Below the pieces are notes generated by a model. That model was given only the letters and a program-made list of their open reading frames with translations, did not search any database and was not told the DNA's origin. Made by a program: the position numbers and the translations under genes. Shown here piece after piece: positions 7,152-61,870 of a stretch of 64,000 bases of DNA; position 1 is the first letter of the stretch, and every line of letters begins with the position of its first letter. The stretch is from Rhina ancylostomus (lineage: Eukaryota), in contig JARFYF010000074.1 of NCBI GenBank assembly GCA_030265395.1, positions 25,965,660 through 26,029,659 of the forward strand, written 5' to 3'.

Positions 7152-8908
7152 TAAAGGTCATTCTGCGTGTTCCCCATCCAGAAACCATAGATGAAGTGGG
7201 AGATCGACTCCCTACAGGTCTAGGTCTGCAGCGTTCAAATCGGGTGATCCTGACCAATACAAGAAACCGAGGTATGACTTCATAAAGCTATCAGGGATGC
7301 CAAGAGACNNNNNNNNNNNNNNNNNNNNNNNNNNNNNNNNNNNNNNNNNNNNNNNNNNTTGCGTGCTATATCAGGCTACAAAACAAAGGTGACAGACAGA
7401 TTTGCTGACCCCATTGAGCCCATTGCATTCAATGCATGTTTTGAACAGAAGAGCAATGAAATGACACCACCTGCCCCAATAGCCTCCAGCACATCTGTAC
7501 CCACAGTCATCATTGAAGATGTCAGATCAGCCTTCCAGAGAGTGAACCCTCTGAAAGCATCTGTCCTGGATGAGGTCCTCAGCCATATCCTCAGATTCTG
7601 CATGGATCAGCAGGCAGGGGTATTTGCAGACAATTCTAACTTCTCCTTACTGCAAGTTGAGGTTCCCACCACCTGCTTTAAGAAGACCCCTATCATCCCA
7701 ATGCCAAAGAAAATAAAGTAACATGCCTTTATGATTATTGCCCAGTTGCTTTGACATCCAGCACCATGAAGTGATTCGAGAGGCTGGTCATTGCACGCAT
7801 TAACTCCAGCCTCCCAAATAACCTTGACTGACTTCAATTCACTCACTGCCGAAACAAGTCCACAGCAGATGCCATCTCCCTGGCCCTACACTCATCTCTG
7901 GAGCATTTGGATAACAAAGACACCTACAGCAGCCTCCTATTTATTGACCACAGCTCTGCCTTGAATACCAAGAGGACTCATATTCAAACTCCTATACCTG
8001 GGACTCAACACCTCCCTTTGCAACAGGATGCCTGACATTCTGACCAACAGACCACAATCAGTAAGGATAGGCAGCGACACCTTCACCATGATTATCCTCA
8101 GCTCTGGTGCCCCACAAGGTNNNNNNNNNNNNNNNNNNNNNNNNNNNNNNNNNNNNNNNNNNNNNNNNNNNNNNNNNNNNNNNNNNNNNNNNNNNNNNNN
8201 NNNNNNNNNNNNNNNNNNNNGACACCTTCACCATGATTATCCTCAGCTCTGGTGCCCCACAAGGTTGCATCCTCGGCCCCTTACTTTACTCCCTATACTC
8301 TGACAACTGTGCGGCCAGATTCAACACTAACTCCATCTACACGTTCGCAGGTGACACCACCATAGTGAGCCAGATCTCAAATAGGAAGCTAGAGAACCTA
8401 GTGGTATGGTGTCAAGATAACAACCTTTCCCTCAATGTCAGCAAAACAAAAGAGTTGGTCATTGACTTCAGGAAGCGGGGTGGAACACATGCCCCTGTGT
8501 GTATCAATGGTGCTGAAGTGAAGATGGTAGAGAGCTTCAAGTTCCTAGGTGGAAACATCACCAATAGCTTGTCCTTGTCCAACCACTCAGACACAATGGC
8601 AAAGAAAGCTCACCATTGCCTCTACTTCCTTGGAAGGCTAAGGAAATTCAGCATTTCCCCATTGACCTTCACCAATTTTTATAGATGTACTATAGAAAGC
8701 ATCCTATCCGAATGCATAACAGCTTGGTACAGCAACTGCTCTTCCCAAGACTGCAAGAAATCAGAGAGAGTTGTGAATACAGCTCAGTCTATCACCAAAA
8801 CCAGCCTCCGCTCCATAGATTCTGTCCATACTTCCCACTGCCTCAGGAAAAACAAAGTTTATCCACTGTATCTTGGTACATGTGACAGTAATAAACCAAT
8901 TACCAATA
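7152..8908 (+). mobile_element. Rex1/Babar-type LINE, RT region and 3' tail, decayed
   Basis: GAPQGCILGPLLYSLY, FAGDTTIV (YADD equivalent), WCQDNNLSLNVSKTKELVIDFRK, FYRCTIESIL; tail catgtgacagtaataaaccaattaccaat. Confidence 0.9.
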
Positions 8909-10943
8909 AGTACTTCTCCAGTCGCTTTATGGCTCCTAATGATCACCATTTATGCTTCTAATAATATAGCCAATTGTAGCAAAACTAGAGGTTCCCAAAG
9001 GGAGGGAACAAGTTCCTGTGGAGTCCCAGAGAAGTCTCAAGGCCCACAAGAGACAATATGGTCACAGTGACCAGTATTAGTTGAACAGCATAATCAGAGT
9101 TTGGCATACTGCCTTTGGGTGCAAATTTTGTCAATTTGCTGAATTTAACTAAAGTTCAATATTTAAAATGGACTGGGCCTCTTACAGTATCCCCAGCAAA
9201 TCTAACTACACATTGTGGGCTGAAAATGGACTCCTTCGTCTCTGCTGCTCTCTCACTTTAGAACTCTCTGCTCATTTGACCAGCTTCATTTTGGTATGCT
9301 GACCATATTTAAGTAGATTGGAAACAATTGGTCCAAACACTGCTTTTCACACTCAACTCCCACCCCACCCACTCCCCACCAGTCTGACATAACAACACTT
9401 ACCTGATTCTGGTACAAATCAAATTCAAATCCATTTCATATTCTACCTTGGAATAACTTGTAGCTAGTACAGATTGTGGGATTTCATTTGAAACTCTGCT
9501 TACAGCTTCCTATATGTCAAAAGTATCAGTAACCATTATCAATTCATGCATTGGCTCTCCATCATCAAGATTTATCTGGCAGGTGCTTTCTTTCAAAATC
9601 CTGCATGTTTTTTATTAAACAATAACTACAAAAGTACTTCGAGGATAGAGAACAGCTTCCCTAACTGTTCTGCTGTACTGGAGGCAAAGCTCTAGGCCTG
9701 CAGTTGCCTTTATTTTCGTTAATCACCTTTCAAAATCTATGTGCTATTCCCCTGCTGCAGAATCTCACCAGCTTCTAATGTTGTTTTCTTCATGGTAGCC
9801 AAGGCAACGTAACTGAAATTTGCTCATTAAACTTCTTCAGCACCCCGAACTATACATTCCTTGCACCCTATGAGCTGAAGGACTCTCAGATTACCACATA
9901 CTGAACAGTAAAGAGCATATTGTAGTCAATGACAAGAGGCCATTCTAGTATTAACCTTTTATAAATACTATCAGACATTTTCCTAATCAATTTAATTATT
10001 CTGTCTTCAATTATTTGGCTGCAATTTCTATGCTTTAGAAATCTAACTGTTTTAATAACCCACAGTCTGGTTACTGGAAAAATGCTTTAGGGTTAATAAA
10101 AAAAATGTGAAAAATTTTGAACCTTGGGTTTTGTTTTTACAGCCATGTTTGATAAGGTTGTAGTTTTGGGAAAAGAATTTACATTCTACAATCCAAACAA
10201 CTGGAGCTGATGAAGGACCAAAACTAAAAGGTACCAAAGTATTTTCAGTCAATACATGTTCTATGATGGCTGGAGTGTCTTGAGTAAGGTTGCTGACTTT
10301 CCACATCAGAATGAGATCACAGGGGCTCAAGATAAGTGTATTGAATGAGACTTCATGATGTTCTCAAGATGAGGAAGGTGGGGTGTGGGAGGAAGGATCC
10401 TTCTCCTCCTGGCATTATATTGAAAGAAAACTAGACAAATGAGTTAAATGCCTTCTTCTGCTTTGATTTTTTATTTTGTTTCAGTTTACCTGACCAGAAA
10501 TCTGGTTGGAATCAATATTTTGTGTCTGAGCCCCAACCTGGAAATCTAACTAGGGGCCCATTGTAATGGCCTTTATGGAAAACAGGTTCACATTGAGCAC
10601 AGTAGGGTTCAAGTGGGATATCAATAGGGAAGCTGCTCAGTCAATTTCACCAGGCTGAAGCTTACAGAGGGTGGGGGATGAAAGGCCAACCACCAGAGGA
10701 TTGATAAAGTCTAGAACTGTTCTAGAAATCTAGGATAAATGCATGGCTGATGAGCTGAGGTAATAATGTTATGAAGGTGAGTATGGGTGACAAATAGGTT
10801 GGAAATTCAGCTTAGTAAACTACCAAATCAAGGTACTTAACTAGTTTATGATTATTTTTCTTGTGTAGTTTTAAGCACGTTCTACTTGTCTCAGACTAAG
10901 GTATTTTCAGCAATGCATTTCAGACAGCTTGCTTTCTTTATAA

Positions 10944-13850: not shown

Positions 13851-14090
13851 AAATTGCAGATGATGGAAATCTGAAACAAAATAAGAAAATGTTGCAAAAT
13901 CTCATTGCTCAGCAGCATCTGTGGTGAGGAAAAGACAGTTAAAATTTCCAGTCAGTGACCTTTCATCAGAACCTGATATAAATTCTGATCAGAGTTCTGA
14001 TGAAAATTCCTGATTTGAAACATTATCTCTGCATCTCTCTCGACAGATGCTGCCTGACCTCCTGAGTATTTCCAGGATTTTCTGTTCTCA
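13851..14090. mobile_element. Penelope-derived fold-back element with hammerhead-like cores
   Basis: Inverted arms (cagcatctgt / acagatgctg); CTGATGA..GAAA on both strands; degenerate flanking direct repeat. Confidence 0.7.
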
Positions 14091-17726: not shown

Positions 17727-17784
17727 CTATTGTAGGATGGAGACAGTTCAAACCAGGATCTGAACTGTCTCCATCCCATAATAG
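17727..17784. repeat. 24-bp stem hairpin (16 bp perfect), 10-nt loop
   Basis: ctattgtaGGATGGAGACAGTTCA-aaccaggatc-TGAACTGTCTCCATCCcataatag. Confidence 0.9.
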
Positions 17785-19034: not shown

Positions 19035-20590
19035 CGTTATGTTGCAACTTTACAAAACACTGGTTAGGCCACACTTGAAGTACTCTGTGCAGTTCTGATC
19101 ATGACACTATGGGAAAGACGTGGTTTCACTAGAGAAAGTGCAGAGGAGATTCACCAGGATGTTGCCTGGATTGGAGGATTTCAGTTATGGGGAGAGANNN
19201 NNNNNNNNNNNNNNNNNNNNNNNNNNNNNNNNNNNNNNNNNNNNNNNNNNNNNNNNNNNNNNNNNNNNNNNNNNNNNNNNNNNNNNNNNNNNNNNNNNNN
19301 NNNNNNNNNNNNNNNNNNNNNNNNNNNNNNNNNNNNNNNNNNNNNNNNNNNNNNNNNNNNNNNNNNNNNNNNNNNNNNNNNNNNNNNNNNNNNNNNNNNN
19401 NNNNNNNNNNNNNNNNNNNNNNNNNNNNNNNNNNNNNNNNNNNNNNNNNNNNNNNNNNNNNNNNNNNNNNNNNNNNNNNNNNNNNNNNNNNNNNNNNNNN
19501 NNNNNNNNNNNNNNNNNNNNNNNNNNNNNNNNNNNNNNNNNNNNNNNNNNNNNNNNNNNNNNNNNNNNNNNNNNNNNNNNNNNNNNNNNNNNNNNNNNNN
19601 NNNNNNNNNNNNNNNNNNNNNNNNNNNNNNNNNNNNNNNNNNNNNNNNNNNNNNNNNNNNNNNNNNNNNNNNNNNNNNNNNNNNNNNNNNNNNNNNNNNN
19701 NNNNNNNNNNNNNNNNNNNNNNNNNNNNNNNNNNNNNNNNNNNNNNNNNNNNNNNNNNNNNNNNNNNNNNNNNNNNNNNNNNNNNNNNNNNNNNNNNNNN
19801 NNNNNNNNNNNNNNNNNNNNNNNNNNNNNNNNNNNNNNNNNNNNNNNNNNNNNNNNNNNNNNNNNNNNNNNNNNNNNNNNNNNNNNNNNNNNNNNNNNNN
19901 NNNNNNNNNNNNNNNNNNNNNNNNNNNNNNNNNNNNNNNNNNNNNNNNNNNNNNNNNNNNNNNNNNNNNNNNNNNNNNNNNNNNNNNNNNNNNNNNNNNN
20001 NNNNNNNNNNNNNNNNNNNNNNNNNNNNNNNNNNNNNNNNNNTGGGGTTATCAAAAACAAGTAGGCATAGGCTTAATGGAGACACAAGAGACTGCAGATG
20101 CTGCTAATCTAGAGCAACATGCAAAGCACTGGATGAACTCAGCAGGTCAGGTAGCATCTGTGGAGGGAAATGGACAGTTGACGTTTCGGGTCGAGACCCT
20201 TCATCTGGATGAGATCCAGATGAAGGGTCTCAACCCAAAACATCAACTATCCATTTCCCTCCATAAATGCTGCCCGACCTGCTGAGTTCCTCCAGCACTT
20301 TGTAGGCATAGGCTTAAGGTGAGAGAAAGGAATTTTAAAGGGGATCTGAGGGGTGAGCTTCTTTACACAGGGAGTGGTTGATATCTGGAACTCACTGCCA
20401 GAGCAGATGGTGAAATCAGATACAACCACGATGTTTAAGAGGCATTTAGACAGACACTTAAATTGGCAAGGATTAGAAGGACAGGGTCCTAATGCGAGCA
20501 AATGGGATCAGTGTGGATGAGCAAAATGGTCGACATAGATGAGGTGGGTCGAAGGGCCCGCCTCTGTGCTGTACAACTCCATTACACTGA
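19035..20590 (+). mobile_element. HER1/CR1 LINE 3' part (spans an N gap; interrupted at 20077-20301)
   Basis: LEKVQRRFTRMLPGLEDFSYGER; 3' UTR ending gggtcgaagggcccgcctctgtgctgt. Confidence 0.85.
20077..20301. mobile_element. Penelope-derived fold-back element with exact 16-bp TSD
   Basis: gtaggcataggcttaa at 20061-20076 and 20302-20317; long inverted arms centred on atctggat-gag-atccagat. Confidence 0.85.
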
Positions 20591-21013
20591 CCTAATAGCG
20601 ATGCTGAAGATACAAAATGTGTGTTTAACTGGTCTAGCGTTACCACTGTATTCGCCTTTTTGTTTGTGCGATTAGTTTAAATCTGTAGATCCAGCAGCAA
20701 TGTGTACAGAAAAATACATATGACACATCCAAGACAATAATCAGGACCTTCACGTCCCATGAAAGATTGAAGAAATTATGTTATTAACAAAACAGGAGAT
20801 GCTGTTGAAAACTTTGCTGAAATAAAGCTGCATTCAAACCTCATTAAAAGGGATCTGTTTGTGCTTGGGATATCAAATGTGGTCAAAATAAGTCATTGGG
20901 TTTAATACTGTAAAGTAGCCTTCTATGTATTAAGATTCATAACATAGATTATAAAACATCTTCCTGTGTTCAGAAAATAGTAGAATTCACAGTGAGACAA
21001 TTTTTATTCCCAG

Positions 21014-21247
21014 ATTCCCTATTGATAACAAAGGAAAATGAGGTGCCAGCTGTTGCCTGTCAGGGCTTTGGAGGGCACACCTTTAATGCAGGTTTCCTCA
21101 ACACACAGGAGGCCTTGCCACATGACCTCACACACCTGGCAATGAGAGCAACATGGAACTCACTGGAGGGAGAGACTGCTGAACTCCTTCAGGAGTTTGT
21201 GAGAATCAATGAGGCTTTGTTAAGCAGTGCGCGCATGCTACTGCCAG
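21014..21247 (+). CDS. candidate orphan coding exon (234 bp, phase 1-1), product unknown
   Basis: Acceptor tttttattcccAG, donor cagGTAAGA, open frame DSLLITKENEVPAVACQGFGGHTF...LLSSARMLLP; no homology recognised. Confidence 0.25.
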
Positions 21248-21389
21248 GTAAGAAGCTGATCATCAGTAGGTCAGTCTTTCTGGCATTAAGACTTAGATAC
21301 CAGTAAATTTAAGGCAACACCAGCATCTCAACAGGAATGAAAAACTGCTGAGGTTTCAGATGAATTGAGCAAAATGTTAAAGCACAGTA

Positions 21390-23309: not shown

Positions 23310-23460
23310 AGAGCAACAAAAATGTGCTGGAAGAACTATGCAGCATTTGTGGGAGGAAAGAAATTGTCAACATTTTGGGTCAAAACCCTGCATAATCTGC
23401 TAGTTACGTCAGCACATTGTTTGTTGCTCCAGATTCCAGCATCTGCAGTCTCTTGTGTCT
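23310..23460. mobile_element. Penelope-derived fold-back element, centre deleted
   Basis: agagcaacaaaaatgtgctggaagaact ... cagcacattgtttgttgctccagattccagcatctgcagtctcttgtgtct; imperfect TSD gacagtgtttcc / ggcaatgtttcc. Confidence 0.75.
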
Positions 23461-24655: not shown

Positions 24656-24879
24656 ACAAAAAGCTGCTGGAAGAACTCAGCTGGTTCAGCAGCATCTGTG
24701 GAGGTAAGGGGATGGTTGACGTTGGGTCGAGATCCTGCACCATGAAACATGATGCACCATGTCTCAACCCGAAATGTTGATCATCCCTCTCCTTCCACAG
24801 ATGCTGCTCAACTCGCTGAGTTCTTCCAGAAGTTTGTTTTTTTCTCCAGATTCCAGTATCTGCAGTCCCTTGTGTCTCC
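24656..24879. mobile_element. Penelope-derived fold-back element
   Basis: Inverted arms ctggaagaactcagc / gctgagttcttccag; TSD aatgaacaactgga / aatgaaaaactaga (12 of 14 match). Confidence 0.8.
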
Positions 24880-25659
24880 AATGAAAAACTAGACCCTGAA
24901 GTTCCACAATGTTTATAAGAGTATTTGTTTATTTGCACTAGAGACACGTGGAACTTGAAATAACATTGAAGGTCCCAGCAACCTTTTAAAAAGATGTAGC
25001 AAAGTGCCCTACTCCTTCAAGATTTCCAGAGTACAGACTACATATTTATTAATTATTTTTATCTACTTTAGTTCAGTTCACCCAAAAGACATTGCTACAA
25101 GCTTTATCAACCAGTCCAGAAATATCAGTCCTGAAACACAGGTACACTCTCTGTTTTTTCTTTCATCCAATCAACTTCTCAGCTTAGACTAATTTTGATT
25201 AGAGAGTCGTCGTCATCTCCATGCCCCAGTGAAACCTACACCATGTATCTAAGCACTGAGTTCTGAGAGAAATTTTAAAAAAGGTTTTATTTAATTAGAT
25301 GTAATTATTTTGTTATGGTAAATTGTCATAAATTACATGTTCTAGTGGAGTATAATTTGGATTGAATCAGGCTAAAAACCCAAATCAGAATTAATTATTT
25401 AATACTTTATCCACTTCAGCTGGATTTATCAACAAACAGGTACAGTTTACTCAACATCTAAAGCATATTACTGAGGTTCTATTTATAAATAACAACTTCA
25501 GGGTTTTTTTAGGAATAGTGCAACAGCACGATCACAACTTGTTCTGCATTACAGCGAAGGGAATAATTCAATCCTCAAACTAAAATTTTCTCCTATTTTA
25601 TCTGAATCATCCCATTGCTGCAAAACAATTAATTTCAGTTCTGCCTTGGTGAAAACCTT

Positions 25660-26720: not shown

Positions 26721-26749
26721 GAGGTTCTACTTAAAGTAACACCACTTTG

Positions 26750-26945
26750 CAACAGCCAGAACCTCCTGGTGGCCACCCACTTCAATTCCACATCCCACTC
26801 CCATAGTGACATGTCTATCCACAGCCTCCCCTACTGGCAGGTTGAGGCCAGACACAGTTTAGAGGAACAACACCTCACATTCTGCCTTGAGAGTCTCCAA
26901 ACTGATGGCCTCAACTTCAATTTCTCTAACTTCTGGTAACTCCAC
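26750..26945 (+). mobile_element. Penelope-like element, GIY-YIG endonuclease C-terminus
   Basis: PELLVATHFNSTSHSHSDMSIHSLPYWQVEARHSLEEQHLTFCLESLQTDGLNFNFSNFW* matches the Penelope ORF end. Confidence 0.85.
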
Positions 26946-27456
26946 CCTTCTGTTTCTTCACCTCCCCCCCCCACCCCGCTCCTTGTCTTCCCTTATTGCT
27001 GTGGCTCCCTTCCNNNNNNNNNNNNNNNNNNNNNNNNNNNNNNNNNNNNNNNNNNNNNNNNNNNNNNNNNNNNNNNNNNNNNNNNNNNNNNNNNNNNNNN
27101 NNNNNNNNNNNNNNNNNNNNNNNNNNNNNNNNNNNNNNNNNNNNNNNNNNNNNNNNNNNNNNNNNNNNNNNNNNNNNNNNNNNNNNNNNNNNNNNNNNNN
27201 NNNNNNNNNNNNNNNNNNNNNNNNNNNNNNNNNNNNNNNNNNNNNNNNNNNNNNNNNNNNNNNNNNNNNNNNNNNNNNNNNNNNNNNNNNNNNNNNNNNN
27301 NNNNNNNNNNNNNNNNNNNNNNNNNNNNNNNNNNNNNNNNNNNNNNNNNNNNNNNNNNNNNNNNNNNNNNNNNNNNNNNNNNNNNNNNNNNNNNNNNNNN
27401 NNNNNNNNNNNNNNNNNNNNNNNNNNNNNNNNNNNNNNNNNNNNNNNNNNNNNNNN

Positions 27457-30799: not shown

Positions 30800-31665
30800 A
30801 CAAGGTCCCGCTTGGTAGGCTGGTCCAGAAGGTTAAGGCACATGGGATCCAAGGCAAACTGGGTAATTGGATACAAAATTGGCTTGGCGATAGGAGGCAG
30901 AGATGAGTAGTGGAAGGATTCCTTTCTGATTAGAAGTTGGTGACAAGTGGTGTACCACAGAGATCAATACTGGGACCCTTGTTATTTTAACAATTTATGT
31001 GTGAATATAGGAGATATGATTAAGTTTGTGGATGGCATGAAAGTTGGTGGCGCTGTGGATAGTGAGGAAGTTTGTCAAAGGCTACAGCAGAATACGGATC
31101 AGATGGAAAGTTGGGCAGAGCACTGGTAGATGGAATTTAATCCTGACAAGTGCAGGGTGATACATTTTGGAAAGTCAATTAGAGGTGGACCTATACAGCA
31201 AATGTTGTGGCGCTAAGGAATGGTGAAGAACAGATGGACCTTGGGATTCAAGTCCATAGCTCCCAGAAAGTGGCAAGACAGGTAGATGGAGTGAACAGTT
31301 CTGGTTGCCACATTATAAAAAGGATGTGATTGTGCTGGAGATAATGCAGAGGCAATTCACCAGGATGATGCCTGGAATTGGAGGACTTTAGTTATGTGGA
31401 GATATTGAATTGGCTTGGATGTTTTCTTTGGAGTGAAGTAGACTTAGAGATGATCTGATAGAGGTATATAAAATTATGAGGCACGGATAAGGTAGGTAGA
31501 ATCCTTTTACTGTGATAGGGGTATCAAAAACAAGAGGGCATTGGTTTAAGGGGAAAGGTAGGAGTTTTAATGGGGATTTGAGGGGAAAGTGTTTTCACAC
31601 AGAAATTTTGGTTGATATCTGGAACTCACTGCCTGAGGAGGTGGTGAAGTCAGATAAAGTTACAC
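30800..31665 (+). mobile_element. HER1/CR1 LINE RT and 3' fragment
   Basis: ggtgtaccacagagatcaatactgggaccc (~GVPQGSVLGP), KFVDGMKVGG, IWNSLPEEVV. Confidence 0.9.
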
Positions 31666-43173: not shown

Positions 43174-43452
43174 AGTAGCGTAACGCTTTACAGCGCCAGT
43201 AACCTGGGTTCAATTCCCGCCGCTGTCTGTAAGGAGTTTGTGCGTTCTCCCCATGTGTGCATGGGTTTCCTCCGGGTGCTCTGGTTTCCTCCCACGTTCC
43301 AAAGACATACAGGTTAGGAAGTTGTGGGCATGCCATGTTGGCGCCGGAAGCATGGTGACACTTACAGGCTGCCCCCAGAACACTCTACACGAAGAGATGC
43401 ATTTCACTGTGTGTTTCGATGTACATGTGACTAATAAAGAGATCTTATCTTA
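43174..43452 (+). mobile_element. V-SINE with Rex1-like tail
   Basis: B box gggttcaattccc, V domain ggagtttgtgcgttctcccc..gggtttcctccgggtgctctggtttcctcccac, tail gtacatgtgactaataaagagatcttatctta. Confidence 0.9.
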
Positions 43453-44218: not shown

Positions 44219-44463
44219 CTTTTTTTTACATTTACAGCGTGGTAGCAGGCCCTTCCGGCCCAACGAGTCCACACCGCCCATTTTAAACCCCAAATTAACC
44301 TACCCGTACGCCTTTGGAATGTGGGAGGAAACTGAAGCACCCGGAGGAAACCCACGCAGACACGGGAGAACGTACAAATTCCTTACAAGCAGTGGCAGGA
44401 ATCGAACCTGGGTTGCTGGCGCTGTAATAGCGTCGTGGTACCCACTACGCTACTGTGCTGCCC
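44219..44463 (-). mobile_element. V-SINE (HE1-like) with CR1-type tail
   Basis: Reverse-complement V domain gtgggaggaaactgaagcacccggaggaaacccacgcagacacgggagaacg; tail gggccggaagggcctgctaccacgctgt followed by A-rich sequence. Confidence 0.9.
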
Positions 44464-48170: not shown

Positions 48171-48217
48171 GAATTCCTGGTTTATTTTCAGACACAAAGT
48201 GAATCTACAGCCTAAGC

Positions 48218-48341
48218 TACACAGACAAAAAGTGCTGGAGAAACTCAGCAGGTCAGGCAGCATCTATGGAGAGAAATAAACAGTCGATGTTTCGGATCGA
48301 GACCTTCATCAGGATTCCAGCATTTGCAGAATCTCTTGTGC
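48218..48341. mobile_element. Penelope-derived short element, 13-bp exact TSD, hammerhead-like core on the minus strand
   Basis: ctacagcctaagc at 48205-48217 and 48342-48354; minus strand 48281-48316 reads aatc-CTGATGA-aggtctcgatcc-GAAAC-ATC-gactg. Confidence 0.8.
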
Positions 48342-48799
48342 CTACAGCCTAAGCCACCAGTTCTACAGTAACTTTAAGCTCTTCCTTGAACACTACTCCC
48401 TCAGGAACAGTATTTGATTAAACTAGGGCTGCCTCTTGACCCCAAATGCACAAGGATTACAGAGGCCCTGTCCCAGTTCATACTTTTCTTTGTTTTCTTG
48501 TCAAAAGTGAAAGCAGGCAACCTCACAGGTCTGCACAAAGTCAATCAGTTCGGTGTTTGATGCCAGCTAAACACAGCCACGTAAAACCCGACATCAGCAA
48601 GGTGGGATTGAGACCGGGTGAACATTAAACCCCCCAATGTGTTGACTCACAAGATCAGTTTCTAGATAATATTGGGAATCTGGTAGTTTCCTTGCTAATT
48701 ATTTTCAAAAGCTTCCAGAAGTCTATTTAAAGTGGGAATGTATCTCTTTAAGCAAGGTGGTATTGCCTGATTTCATGTTTGATTGAAGACTGTAGTAGT

Positions 48800-56970: not shown

Positions 56971-57150
56971 AAATCAGACAATGCTCAGCCACTCAGGCAG
57001 TACTGTGGAATTAATGTTTCAGGATGAAGGATCCTTGATCTGAAATGTTACCCCTGCTTCTCTTTCCACAGATGCGGGCTGACGTGCTGGGCATTTTCAG
57101 AATTTTCTGGTTTTAGTTCAGATGTCCACCATCTGCAGTTTTTTGATTTT
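56971..57150. mobile_element. Penelope-derived fold-back element, degenerate
   Basis: gatgaaggatccttgatctgaaatgtt core, ccacagatgc, catctgcagtttttt; imperfect TSD gagtaa(a/g)gag. Confidence 0.65.
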
Positions 57151-61239: not shown

Positions 61240-61870
61240 TAGCTGGTTCTGTGCAGAACAAGATTGCGCAATAAACCGCACCCACACGCCCCGCACCCCC
61301 CTCCCCCAGAATGATCAATGAAAGCAAAGCATTGCTTGAGCATGCCCATTGTCTGGTTAATGGCATTTCTGATAATGGACTGGCTCTTGTTTTGGGTCAG
61401 ATATGCAGCTGTGCCTGAGTTCCTGATAGGAATCATAAGCCACGTCTGAAGGGGAAAGTCCTTGTCAATCACAGGCAGCCTCTGTCTCGACCCCTCTAGT
61501 GAAATAGAAAAGACCTGGAAGACTGGCACAGGACGACCATTGTGCCTGCTGCCAAGAAACTATTCAGAGGTCTGCAGGATCACAAACCAGCAGAACAATG
61601 AGGGTATGGAATCTCCTTCAACAGATAAGGATGTGGAGCCTATTATTATACATAAACCAATCTGGGTGTCATCCATGGCACTTTCCTTCACATTATCTGT
61701 GGATGAATGTAATGGTGCAGCGATCCTTGGGGATTTCCCCAGTTGTGGTAGATATCAGCAGCGAGGTGTTACTGACGTCACCTGCGCCAGTCTGAAAAGG
61801 AGGGGCGTTTAGTGAAAAAATTAAGTACTTCAGTCATCTTAGCAACCAAAGGCAATGCTGTCATTGTCCT
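61240..61870 (-). pseudogene. PIF/Harbinger (HARBI1-like) transposase remnant
   Basis: Collinear minus-strand motifs: TALPLVAKMTEVLNFF, FQTGAGDV, AMDDTQI (~AIDCTHV), FHTLIVLLVCD, GSRHN, DKDFPLQTWLMIPIRN, RNAINQTMGMLKQCF, DHSGG, LRNL. Confidence 0.85.

Follow-up and report, generated by a model that had tools for sequence, protein, structure and literature searches.

Head-to-head insertions of Penelope-like elements (PLEs) are not new. The complex insertions of Pen2a_Av in Adineta contain an inverted pLTR and a tail (PMC3846280; scheme in PMC8557442), and truncated PLEs are reported to carry hammerhead pairs on opposite strands, 100-700 bp apart (PMC4209133). The layout discussed below is thus already published in these three papers. 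The origin of the inverted ends and the tail, as well as the role of the hammerhead, are stated to be open in PMC8557442, PMC4209133 and PMC11167929. Our searches revealed no papers on twin priming in PLEs, and none on chondrichthyan Neptune elements.

The copies considered here have in common with Pen2a_Av, as described in the papers above, the head-to-head 5'-truncated copy, a tail of 30-40 nt at one end, partial tandems, and a duplication of 8-10 bp or longer. They differ from it in that the arms are often stumps of 90-135 nt that contain no ORF, and in that the copy number is very high. Also unlike in those reports, the presence of one tail per pair and a hotspot of 5' stops are here counted rather than noted singly. 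With the metazoan PLE hammerheads of PMC4209133 they share the short helix I, the extra base between positions 9 and 10.1, the G10.1-C11.1 pair, and the palindromic ACGU that replaces helix III, while U4A is fixed in one large subfamily here and a C follows G8 in another. U4A was not found in the text of that paper; its supplementary figures may hold it.

Two further systems are relevant. In the Poseidon element PAc of Anolis (PMC11167929), the uncleaved RNA serves as the template and the tail lies between two start sites of reverse transcription. PAc and the present element both have tandem units in which a hammerhead and a tail occupy the 5' end of the following ORF. Unlike PAc, however, the shark/ray-type element has the Zn-finger linker of Neptune and Nematis, and in its intact unit L266 (see below) the ORF begins downstream of the tail and not within the hammerhead. 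The animal non-LTR retrozymes (PMC7229834; bioRxiv 10.64898/2026.07.22.740005) are likewise non-coding and PLE-related, with a type I hammerhead and with duplications longer than those of plant retrozymes. They consist of head-to-tail tandems with intact cores and give circular RNA, whereas the copies here are head-to-head and truncated and have no fixed unit. Tandem units with intact cores, by which retrozymes are defined (PMC7229834, bioRxiv 10.64898/2026.07.22.740005, PMC6155905), are thus not what is found here.

Results and Discussion

Structure of the insertion

All positions refer to the window, that is, the whole 64-kb stretch of DNA that was analysed. The insert comprises 225 bp (20077-20301) and lies between exact 16-bp direct repeats, the left one at 20061-20076 and the right one at 20302-20317. 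It breaks the 3' region of a LINE on the plus strand (20043-20575, from the alignment to another LINE copy), which we take to be CR1-type on the basis of its protein motifs. When the insert and one of the repeats are deleted, the flanks align ungapped across the junction to the LINE copy at 31518-31656 (80.6%), the left flank in this alignment being the 18 visible bases that follow the assembly gap at 19198-20042. This means that the 16-mer was single-copy before the insertion. The repeats and the reconstructed empty site bear out the earlier note, which had reported that an insert of 225 bp, flanked by a perfect 16-bp duplication, interrupts a LINE copy.

That note had also described inverted arms with CAGATGA in both and a decayed plus arm, and this description stands: the inverted arms (20122-20210 and 20214-20302) are 89 nt each and 88% complementary, and GAAA has become AAAA in the plus arm. 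What it missed is that 20077-20121 is unpaired. This is a tail of ~45 nt, present on the minus arm only and of the kind described in PMC8557442 and PMC11167929, and it makes the insert asymmetric. In the numbering used below, 0 is the first T of TCC(A/T)GATGA, which falls on 20209 in the minus arm and on 20215 in the plus arm. The long arm (20077-20209, minus strand) corresponds to the last ~133 nt of a PLE 3' terminus, with the hammerhead region and the tail; it matches the consensus of the CAGAUGA subfamily at 89%, and its 5' truncation point is the upstream edge of the hammerhead. The short arm (20215-20301, plus strand) is the same PLE end without the tail, and it has the same 5' stop and a decayed hammerhead. 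The arms, which thus represent the last 88-133 nt of a PLE, are joined by a filler of 5 nt (20210-20214) that is unique among the junctions seen. We are highly confident that the insert is a pair of PLE ends. The copy itself is probably ordinary retrotransposon scrap and inert, since the hammerhead is predicted to fold in neither arm.

Another option considered was a fold-back of the MITE or DNA-transposon type, or a hairpin formed by local rearrangement after the insertion of a single arm. The small size and the long inverted arms would fit such an origin. However, the two termini do not form an inverted repeat, a tail of ~44-45 nt being present on one side, and the arms are ends of PLE RNA. 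Furthermore, the duplication surrounds both arms, which implies that they arrived together and speaks against a rearrangement, and the MITE is refuted by the variable lengths of the duplications (10-17 bp). We consider this origin to be highly improbable.

Including the one above, there are six copies in the window, in agreement with the earlier estimate of about one copy per 10 kb. All five relatives that had been listed (13851, 23310, 24656, 48218 and 56971) exist, but their repeats are weaker than claimed and none is 22 bp long. Head-to-head pairs are present at 13851-14085 (older subfamily with canonical core; long arm minus, short arm plus; a doubtful, displaced 10-nt repeat with one mismatch), at 23311-23460 (short arm minus, strongly truncated tailed arm plus) and at 24656-24880 (short arm minus, tailed arm plus), the latter two each with a repeat of 10-11 nt with one mismatch. 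The pair at 56971-57145 is old and decayed; its tailed arm is on the plus strand, its repeat is 10-11 nt with one mismatch, and its inverted arm can be discerned by eye but is under the BLAST threshold. At 48215-48343, a short arm on the minus strand (0-98, canonical core) is paired with a tail-only arm on the plus strand (102-132), such that the two have no common sequence, and the duplication is 13 bp when exact and 16 bp with one mismatch.

Some other features of the window can be mentioned here. A reverse transcriptase (RT) remnant of a non-LTR retrotransposon (7278-8961, plus strand) matches RVT_1 and ALKBH8_N, and a 45-bp repeat (8076-8120 and 8221-8265) that flanks a 100-N gap is probably an assembly artefact. 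The 58-nt imperfect palindrome at 17727-17784 has no match to the PLE end references. Another short repeat, presumably SINE-like, occurs as two inverted copies that are 83% alike and ~1 kb apart (43183-43314 and 44302-44433). A remnant of a DDE_Tnp_4 transposase, likely of PIF/Harbinger type, is seen at 61242-61559 on the minus strand (E=2.6e-4, below the cut-off). No host exon was identified in the 8 ORFs scanned of the 72 listed for the window; a 130-codon open frame just past the host LINE (20914-21306, plus strand) has no Pfam match and may be an exon or due to chance.

Identity of the arms

Judged by its sequence, each arm is the terminus of an abundant Neptune-type PLE. At 26739-27013 on the plus strand, the window contains, by homology, the C-terminus of a PLE endonuclease followed by the start of a pyrimidine-rich 3' UTR, which enters an assembly gap. 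The Penelope endonuclease remnant placed at 26750 by the earlier note is therefore the C-terminal end of a PLE GIY-YIG domain; alone it is too short for a Pfam match, and its closest protein matches are from stingray and devil ray. With the remnant (26739-26936) as query, 23,396 first-look candidates were obtained in the genome (2.2 Gb). In 16 of 36 endonuclease loci the minus-strand arm is found behind the pyrimidine-rich UTR, ~300-380 nt past the endonuclease stop on the same strand and with 74-87% identity; in one of the 16 it is only 30 nt past the stop, after a deletion. Most of the remaining 20 loci hit gaps or end earlier. The arms are ordinary PLE 3' ends, and the previously proposed RNA-mediated insertion by the Penelope machinery is supported.

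A related subfamily is represented by an intact tandem unit, in circularly permuted form, on the contig of L266 (C2762; G000:C2762:1-3287), in the order RT, CX4CxxC linker, GIY-YIG, UTR, hammerhead, tail and start of the next ORF. The hammerhead is at 929, and the next ORF starts 167 nt past the core, with an ATG at 1096 from which 730 codons are open. These overlap the 212-codon start of the contig, which gives an open ORF of ~900 codons, in which both the RVT_1 and the GIY-YIG matches are below the curated Pfam cut-offs. A CX2-5CxxC linker between RT and endonuclease marks Neptune and Nematis (PMC8557442), and it was found both in the ORF of L266 and in P0002; the label Neptune-type is given on the basis of this linker. 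L266 probably represents a young, collapsed family, and it is a candidate for an active element. ORF-bearing copies with the same inverted partner also occur (for example L245, L246 and L248), with arms of up to kilobases.

Pairs, tails and duplications

We now turn to the genome. Two samples, 160 copies in total and both from one contig, were picked irrespective of shape: sample 1 consists of 90 of the first 100 listed matches (of 2992) to a 26-mer within the arm, and sample 2 of 70 of the first 100 listed matches (of 2910) to a tail 26-mer. Setting aside the 27 copies with a gap at the 5' end (22 in sample 1 and 5 in sample 2) leaves 133 gap-free copies, the BLAST ends of which are uncertain by a few bases. 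A head-to-head partner was found for 47 of them, namely 20/68 in sample 1 (within 60 nt) and 27/65 in sample 2, where L275, a UTR match, was excluded as a false partner.

The 3' ends of the sample 1 copies are bimodal, at ~+95 and ~+131. Among the 20 pairs of this sample, 14 have one tail, 4 have none, 1 is intermediate and 1 has two, compared to 6.2 two-tailed pairs expected (p=0.006). In sample 2, there is 1 tailed partner among 27 against 15 expected (p=1e-8). Over both samples, two-tailed pairs amount to 2/47. Duplications of 10-17 bp accompany 23 of 43 pairs (10/17 in sample 1 and 13/26 in sample 2), while duplications of at least 10 bp occur in only 1.4% and 1.1% of the shuffled flanks for the two samples, respectively. 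The earlier assertion that the duplications are long and variable, and not of the MITE type, is supported. For unpaired copies the corresponding number is 14/77.

The arms of the pairs are truncated independently. Their 5' ends span -104 to +104, the inner ends are more than 20 nt apart in 21/47 pairs, and the arms share no sequence at all in 3/47 pairs, to which the window copy at 48218 can be added (the latter two numbers are hand counts). With a pattern that spans the centre, 75 CAG/CAG fold-backs were found in the genome. The 50 listed among these have 50 different junctions, and ~95 of their 100 arm ends retain just 0-5 upstream bases (both by eye).

These data bear on the possibility of a self-propagating non-autonomous fold-back, retrozyme- or SINE-like, which would be transcribed as a whole and mobilised in trans by the PLE. 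The animal retrozymes do come from PLE pLTRs (bioRxiv 10.64898/2026.07.22.740005). Here, both arms end at the same point in many copies (4619 first-look candidates), as seen also in the 75 exact CAG/CAG centres, and the hotspot described below would also be expected from a short master RNA with its start at the edge of the hammerhead. In addition, among the 28 best matches to the 20077-20301 copy there is one position that is A in 11 short arms and in no long arm. This skew, which also goes against a shared template for the two arms, likely has query bias as its cause; in an unbiased set, the same position is A in 2-3/14 and 1/13. A master copy would be expected to give shared junctions and arm-specific variants, but there is no common junction among the 50 listed fold-backs (of 75) or among the 28 distinct best matches, and the arms are closer to each other within a locus (identity 0.81) than long arms are between loci (0.78). 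Also against a master are the unbroken series of sizes up to ORF-bearing arms, the head-to-head rather than tandem arrangement, and the occurrence of CAGAUGA on ORF-bearing copies. A master element is, on this evidence, very unlikely. The distinct non-autonomous retrozyme-like family that the earlier note had proposed is not supported either, as the arms are ordinary PLE 3' ends, truncated independently and with unique junctions.

Derived alleles are shared by the arms of one locus in 119 cases compared to 79.5 in permuted pairs (0/5000 permutations; L020 and L025 excluded as duplicates), and both arms belong to the same subfamily in 21/23 confident pairs, with 31% expected. The other two (L197 and L307), whose arms differ at subfamily-diagnostic positions, were considered as candidates for chimeric pairs of two subfamilies, but they were unconvincing on inspection.

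The 5' stops

In sample 1, 26 of the 48 arms that reach +12 end within -5 to +12. With this bin fixed beforehand, 22 of 32 arms stop within it in sample 2, compared to 4.8 expected (p=1e-11). The predicted hammerhead cut site (+27 to +33) shows no such excess, with 6/96 5' ends against 5.6 expected, and the idea that the arms start at the cut site was accordingly rejected. We have also considered whether the hotspot could be an artefact of upstream UTRs that are not represented, but the 40 nt upstream of the 26 stops in sample 1 have a mean pyrimidine content of 45%, compared to 83-88% in the UTR. Even when all gap-censored copies are counted as passing, the hotspot remains at 26/60.

The stop sits after a polypyrimidine tract and a CAG, which are kept in 17/18 long U4A copies and 48/57 canonical ones. 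By sequence, the site resembles three things at once: the 5' strand of helix I, a 3' splice site and an initiator. The Penelope of D. virilis has a start site in its pLTR (PMC8557442) and an intron that ends at the 5' edge of helix I (PMC4209133). We tentatively favour the interpretation that the hotspot would be the 5' end of the RNA. An extra G at the stop, which could derive from a cap, was dropped as an argument, since a GAG is present there in a long copy too and is likewise produced by local filler. For L266, no GT-AG joint at the CAG/TAG boundary was found among the 15 joints listed (50 more were unlisted), in contigs of four runs that were only guessed to be RNA.

The hammerhead and its CAGAUGA subfamily

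The hammerhead remnant of the insert (20175-20209, minus strand), identified by sequence and helix prediction, has the core CAGAUGA (U4A) at 20207-20201, followed by an extra A, helix II at 20199-20188 and GAAA at 20187-20184, with the cut predicted between 20180 and 20179. The 5' strand of its helix I is truncated and the first pair is mismatched. In the plus arm, CAGATGA is accompanied by the loss of both GAAA (AAAA, G12A) and the ACGT palindrome. Compared to the conserved core C3 U4 G5 A6 N7 G8 A9 / G12 A13 A14, both arms and the whole subfamily thus carry U4A. The Rfam scan of the 64-kb window gave no hammerhead or other meaningful match at E<=10.

Clustering of 303 copies, a set enriched for U4A by the searches used, resulted in six consensuses, of which three are canonical; the others are U4A, a variant at N7, and a form in which C follows G8. 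Helices I and II, the extra base at 9/10.1 and the palindromic helix III region are present in the subfamily consensuses, and in one of these a helix I pair has changed from C-G to U-A. The minimal type I motif of the earlier note is supported. The C-after-G8 subfamily (CUGAUG-C-AG; L292, L296, L305, L322 and window 23311-23460) is a second lineage with an altered core.

There are 86 exact 29-mers with CAGATGA in the genome, compared to 151 with CTGATGA. A long UTR is found upstream in at least 10 of 30 CAGATGA loci, and the end of the PLE ORF is in register at three of them (L069, L085 and L090). This means that U4A is a trait of a coding PLE subfamily, and CAGAUGA as a marker of the fold-backs was rejected since it occurs on copies that bear the UTR and the ORF end. 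Among 40 RT loci there was no full-length ORF-bearing CAGAUGA copy, only the ORF end being found. The earlier suggestion of a CAGAUGA lineage that has spread is supported. Two loci, C64:15880295-15880507 and C65:7638501-7638702 (G000), each carry a pair of exact CAGATGA motifs in direct orientation, with spacings of 184 and 173 bp, respectively; such short direct tandems would be a retrozyme-like arrangement.

U4 belongs to the conserved core, and U4C reduces the activity in vitro (PMC3088659); for U4A, no kinetics or activity measurement was found in the literature. From its core, the U4A hammerhead is likely 'dead'. The subfamily has spread nevertheless, so cutting is probably not needed for the jump. 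The helices are predicted to form in the isolated U4A consensus. For transcripts of 20077-20301, helix II has a predicted probability of 0 whichever strand is read, and the complementary arm is always transcribed first. Self-cleaving RNA from either strand, as had been envisaged for the family, is therefore unlikely for this copy, its helix I being also truncated and mismatched. If transcribed, the copy would form long double-stranded RNA.

Mechanism

On balance, we regard it as fairly probable that the head-to-head pair of 5'-truncated PLE ends is made anew at each insertion by priming on both target strands. The PLE protein would nick the two strands 10-17 nt apart, and reverse transcription would be primed by one nick at the outer start site (~+132) and by the other at the inner one (~+95), with RNA of the same element as the template for both strands. 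Both cDNAs would run across the hammerhead, which is still uncleaved, and in many cases stop immediately upstream, the simplest reason being that the RNA starts there. Their ends would then be linked through a few bases of filler, and the target-site duplication would result from gap repair. With one start site per strand, such a scheme would account for the single tail, the independent truncation and the non-overlapping pairs, and also for the junction filler and the duplication that encloses both arms.

It is known that a PLE protein nicks and extends both strands in vitro, that reverse transcription begins there at two internal sites bounding the tail, and that hammerhead mutants insert normally, cleavage being dispensable in vitro (PMC11167929). 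Against the two-strand priming, the start site was equal on both strands in those experiments (PMC11167929), such that the one-tail rule would need a coupling between the strands. In addition, 20/43 pairs have no duplication of at least 10 bp, and 4/20 pairs in sample 1 are tailless on both arms.

We have also considered snap-back self-priming, as proposed in PMC3846280, with the same PLE origin. Here, the cDNA or an antisense template would fold near helix I and copy itself, the product would be trimmed at the inner tail site on integration, and the asymmetric pairs would result from later central deletions. This would fit the symmetric pairs and the subfamilies and derived alleles that are common to the arms of a locus. 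The hotspot lies where the 5-bp helix I complement ends, junction fillers often repeat the adjoining sequence, and several pairs join an end at ~0 to one at ~+30-40, as the fold predicts. However, 21/47 pairs are asymmetric by more than 20 nt and the arms have no common sequence in 3/47 pairs and at 48218 in the window. An extra step would also be required for the second arm to terminate at ~+95, while in vitro two start sites have been shown (PMC11167929). Snap-back is in our view rather unlikely. It should be noted that the order of events is not readable from the genomic structure, as snap-back followed by central deletion gives similar products to two-strand priming.

Conclusions

The value of the finding at 20077-20301 lies in the data that it provides on the open mechanism of PLEs, the element itself being ordinary. 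The U4A subfamily, the one-tail count and the stop hotspot were not found in print but may be present in supplements or repeat libraries. The near-absence of two-tailed pairs and the replicated stop at the upstream edge of the hammerhead, with none at the cut site, bear on this mechanism. For the role of the hammerhead, the relevant observation is an ORF-bearing U4A subfamily with an abundance comparable to that of the canonical form (86 vs 151 exact 29-mers). L266, an intact tandem unit from the same assembly, is material for in vitro work.

One can speculate that the stumps are a genome-wide record of PLE integration, a broader reading that we hold only tentatively. A dimer of the protein would then prime both target strands, assigning one RNA start site to each, and a short 'strong-stop' stretch up to the 5' end of the RNA would be integrated twice with the RNA uncleaved. 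The U4A subfamily would have amplified equally to the canonical one, the conserved part being the boundary between helix I and CAG, and it would show that cleavage is dispensable in vivo.
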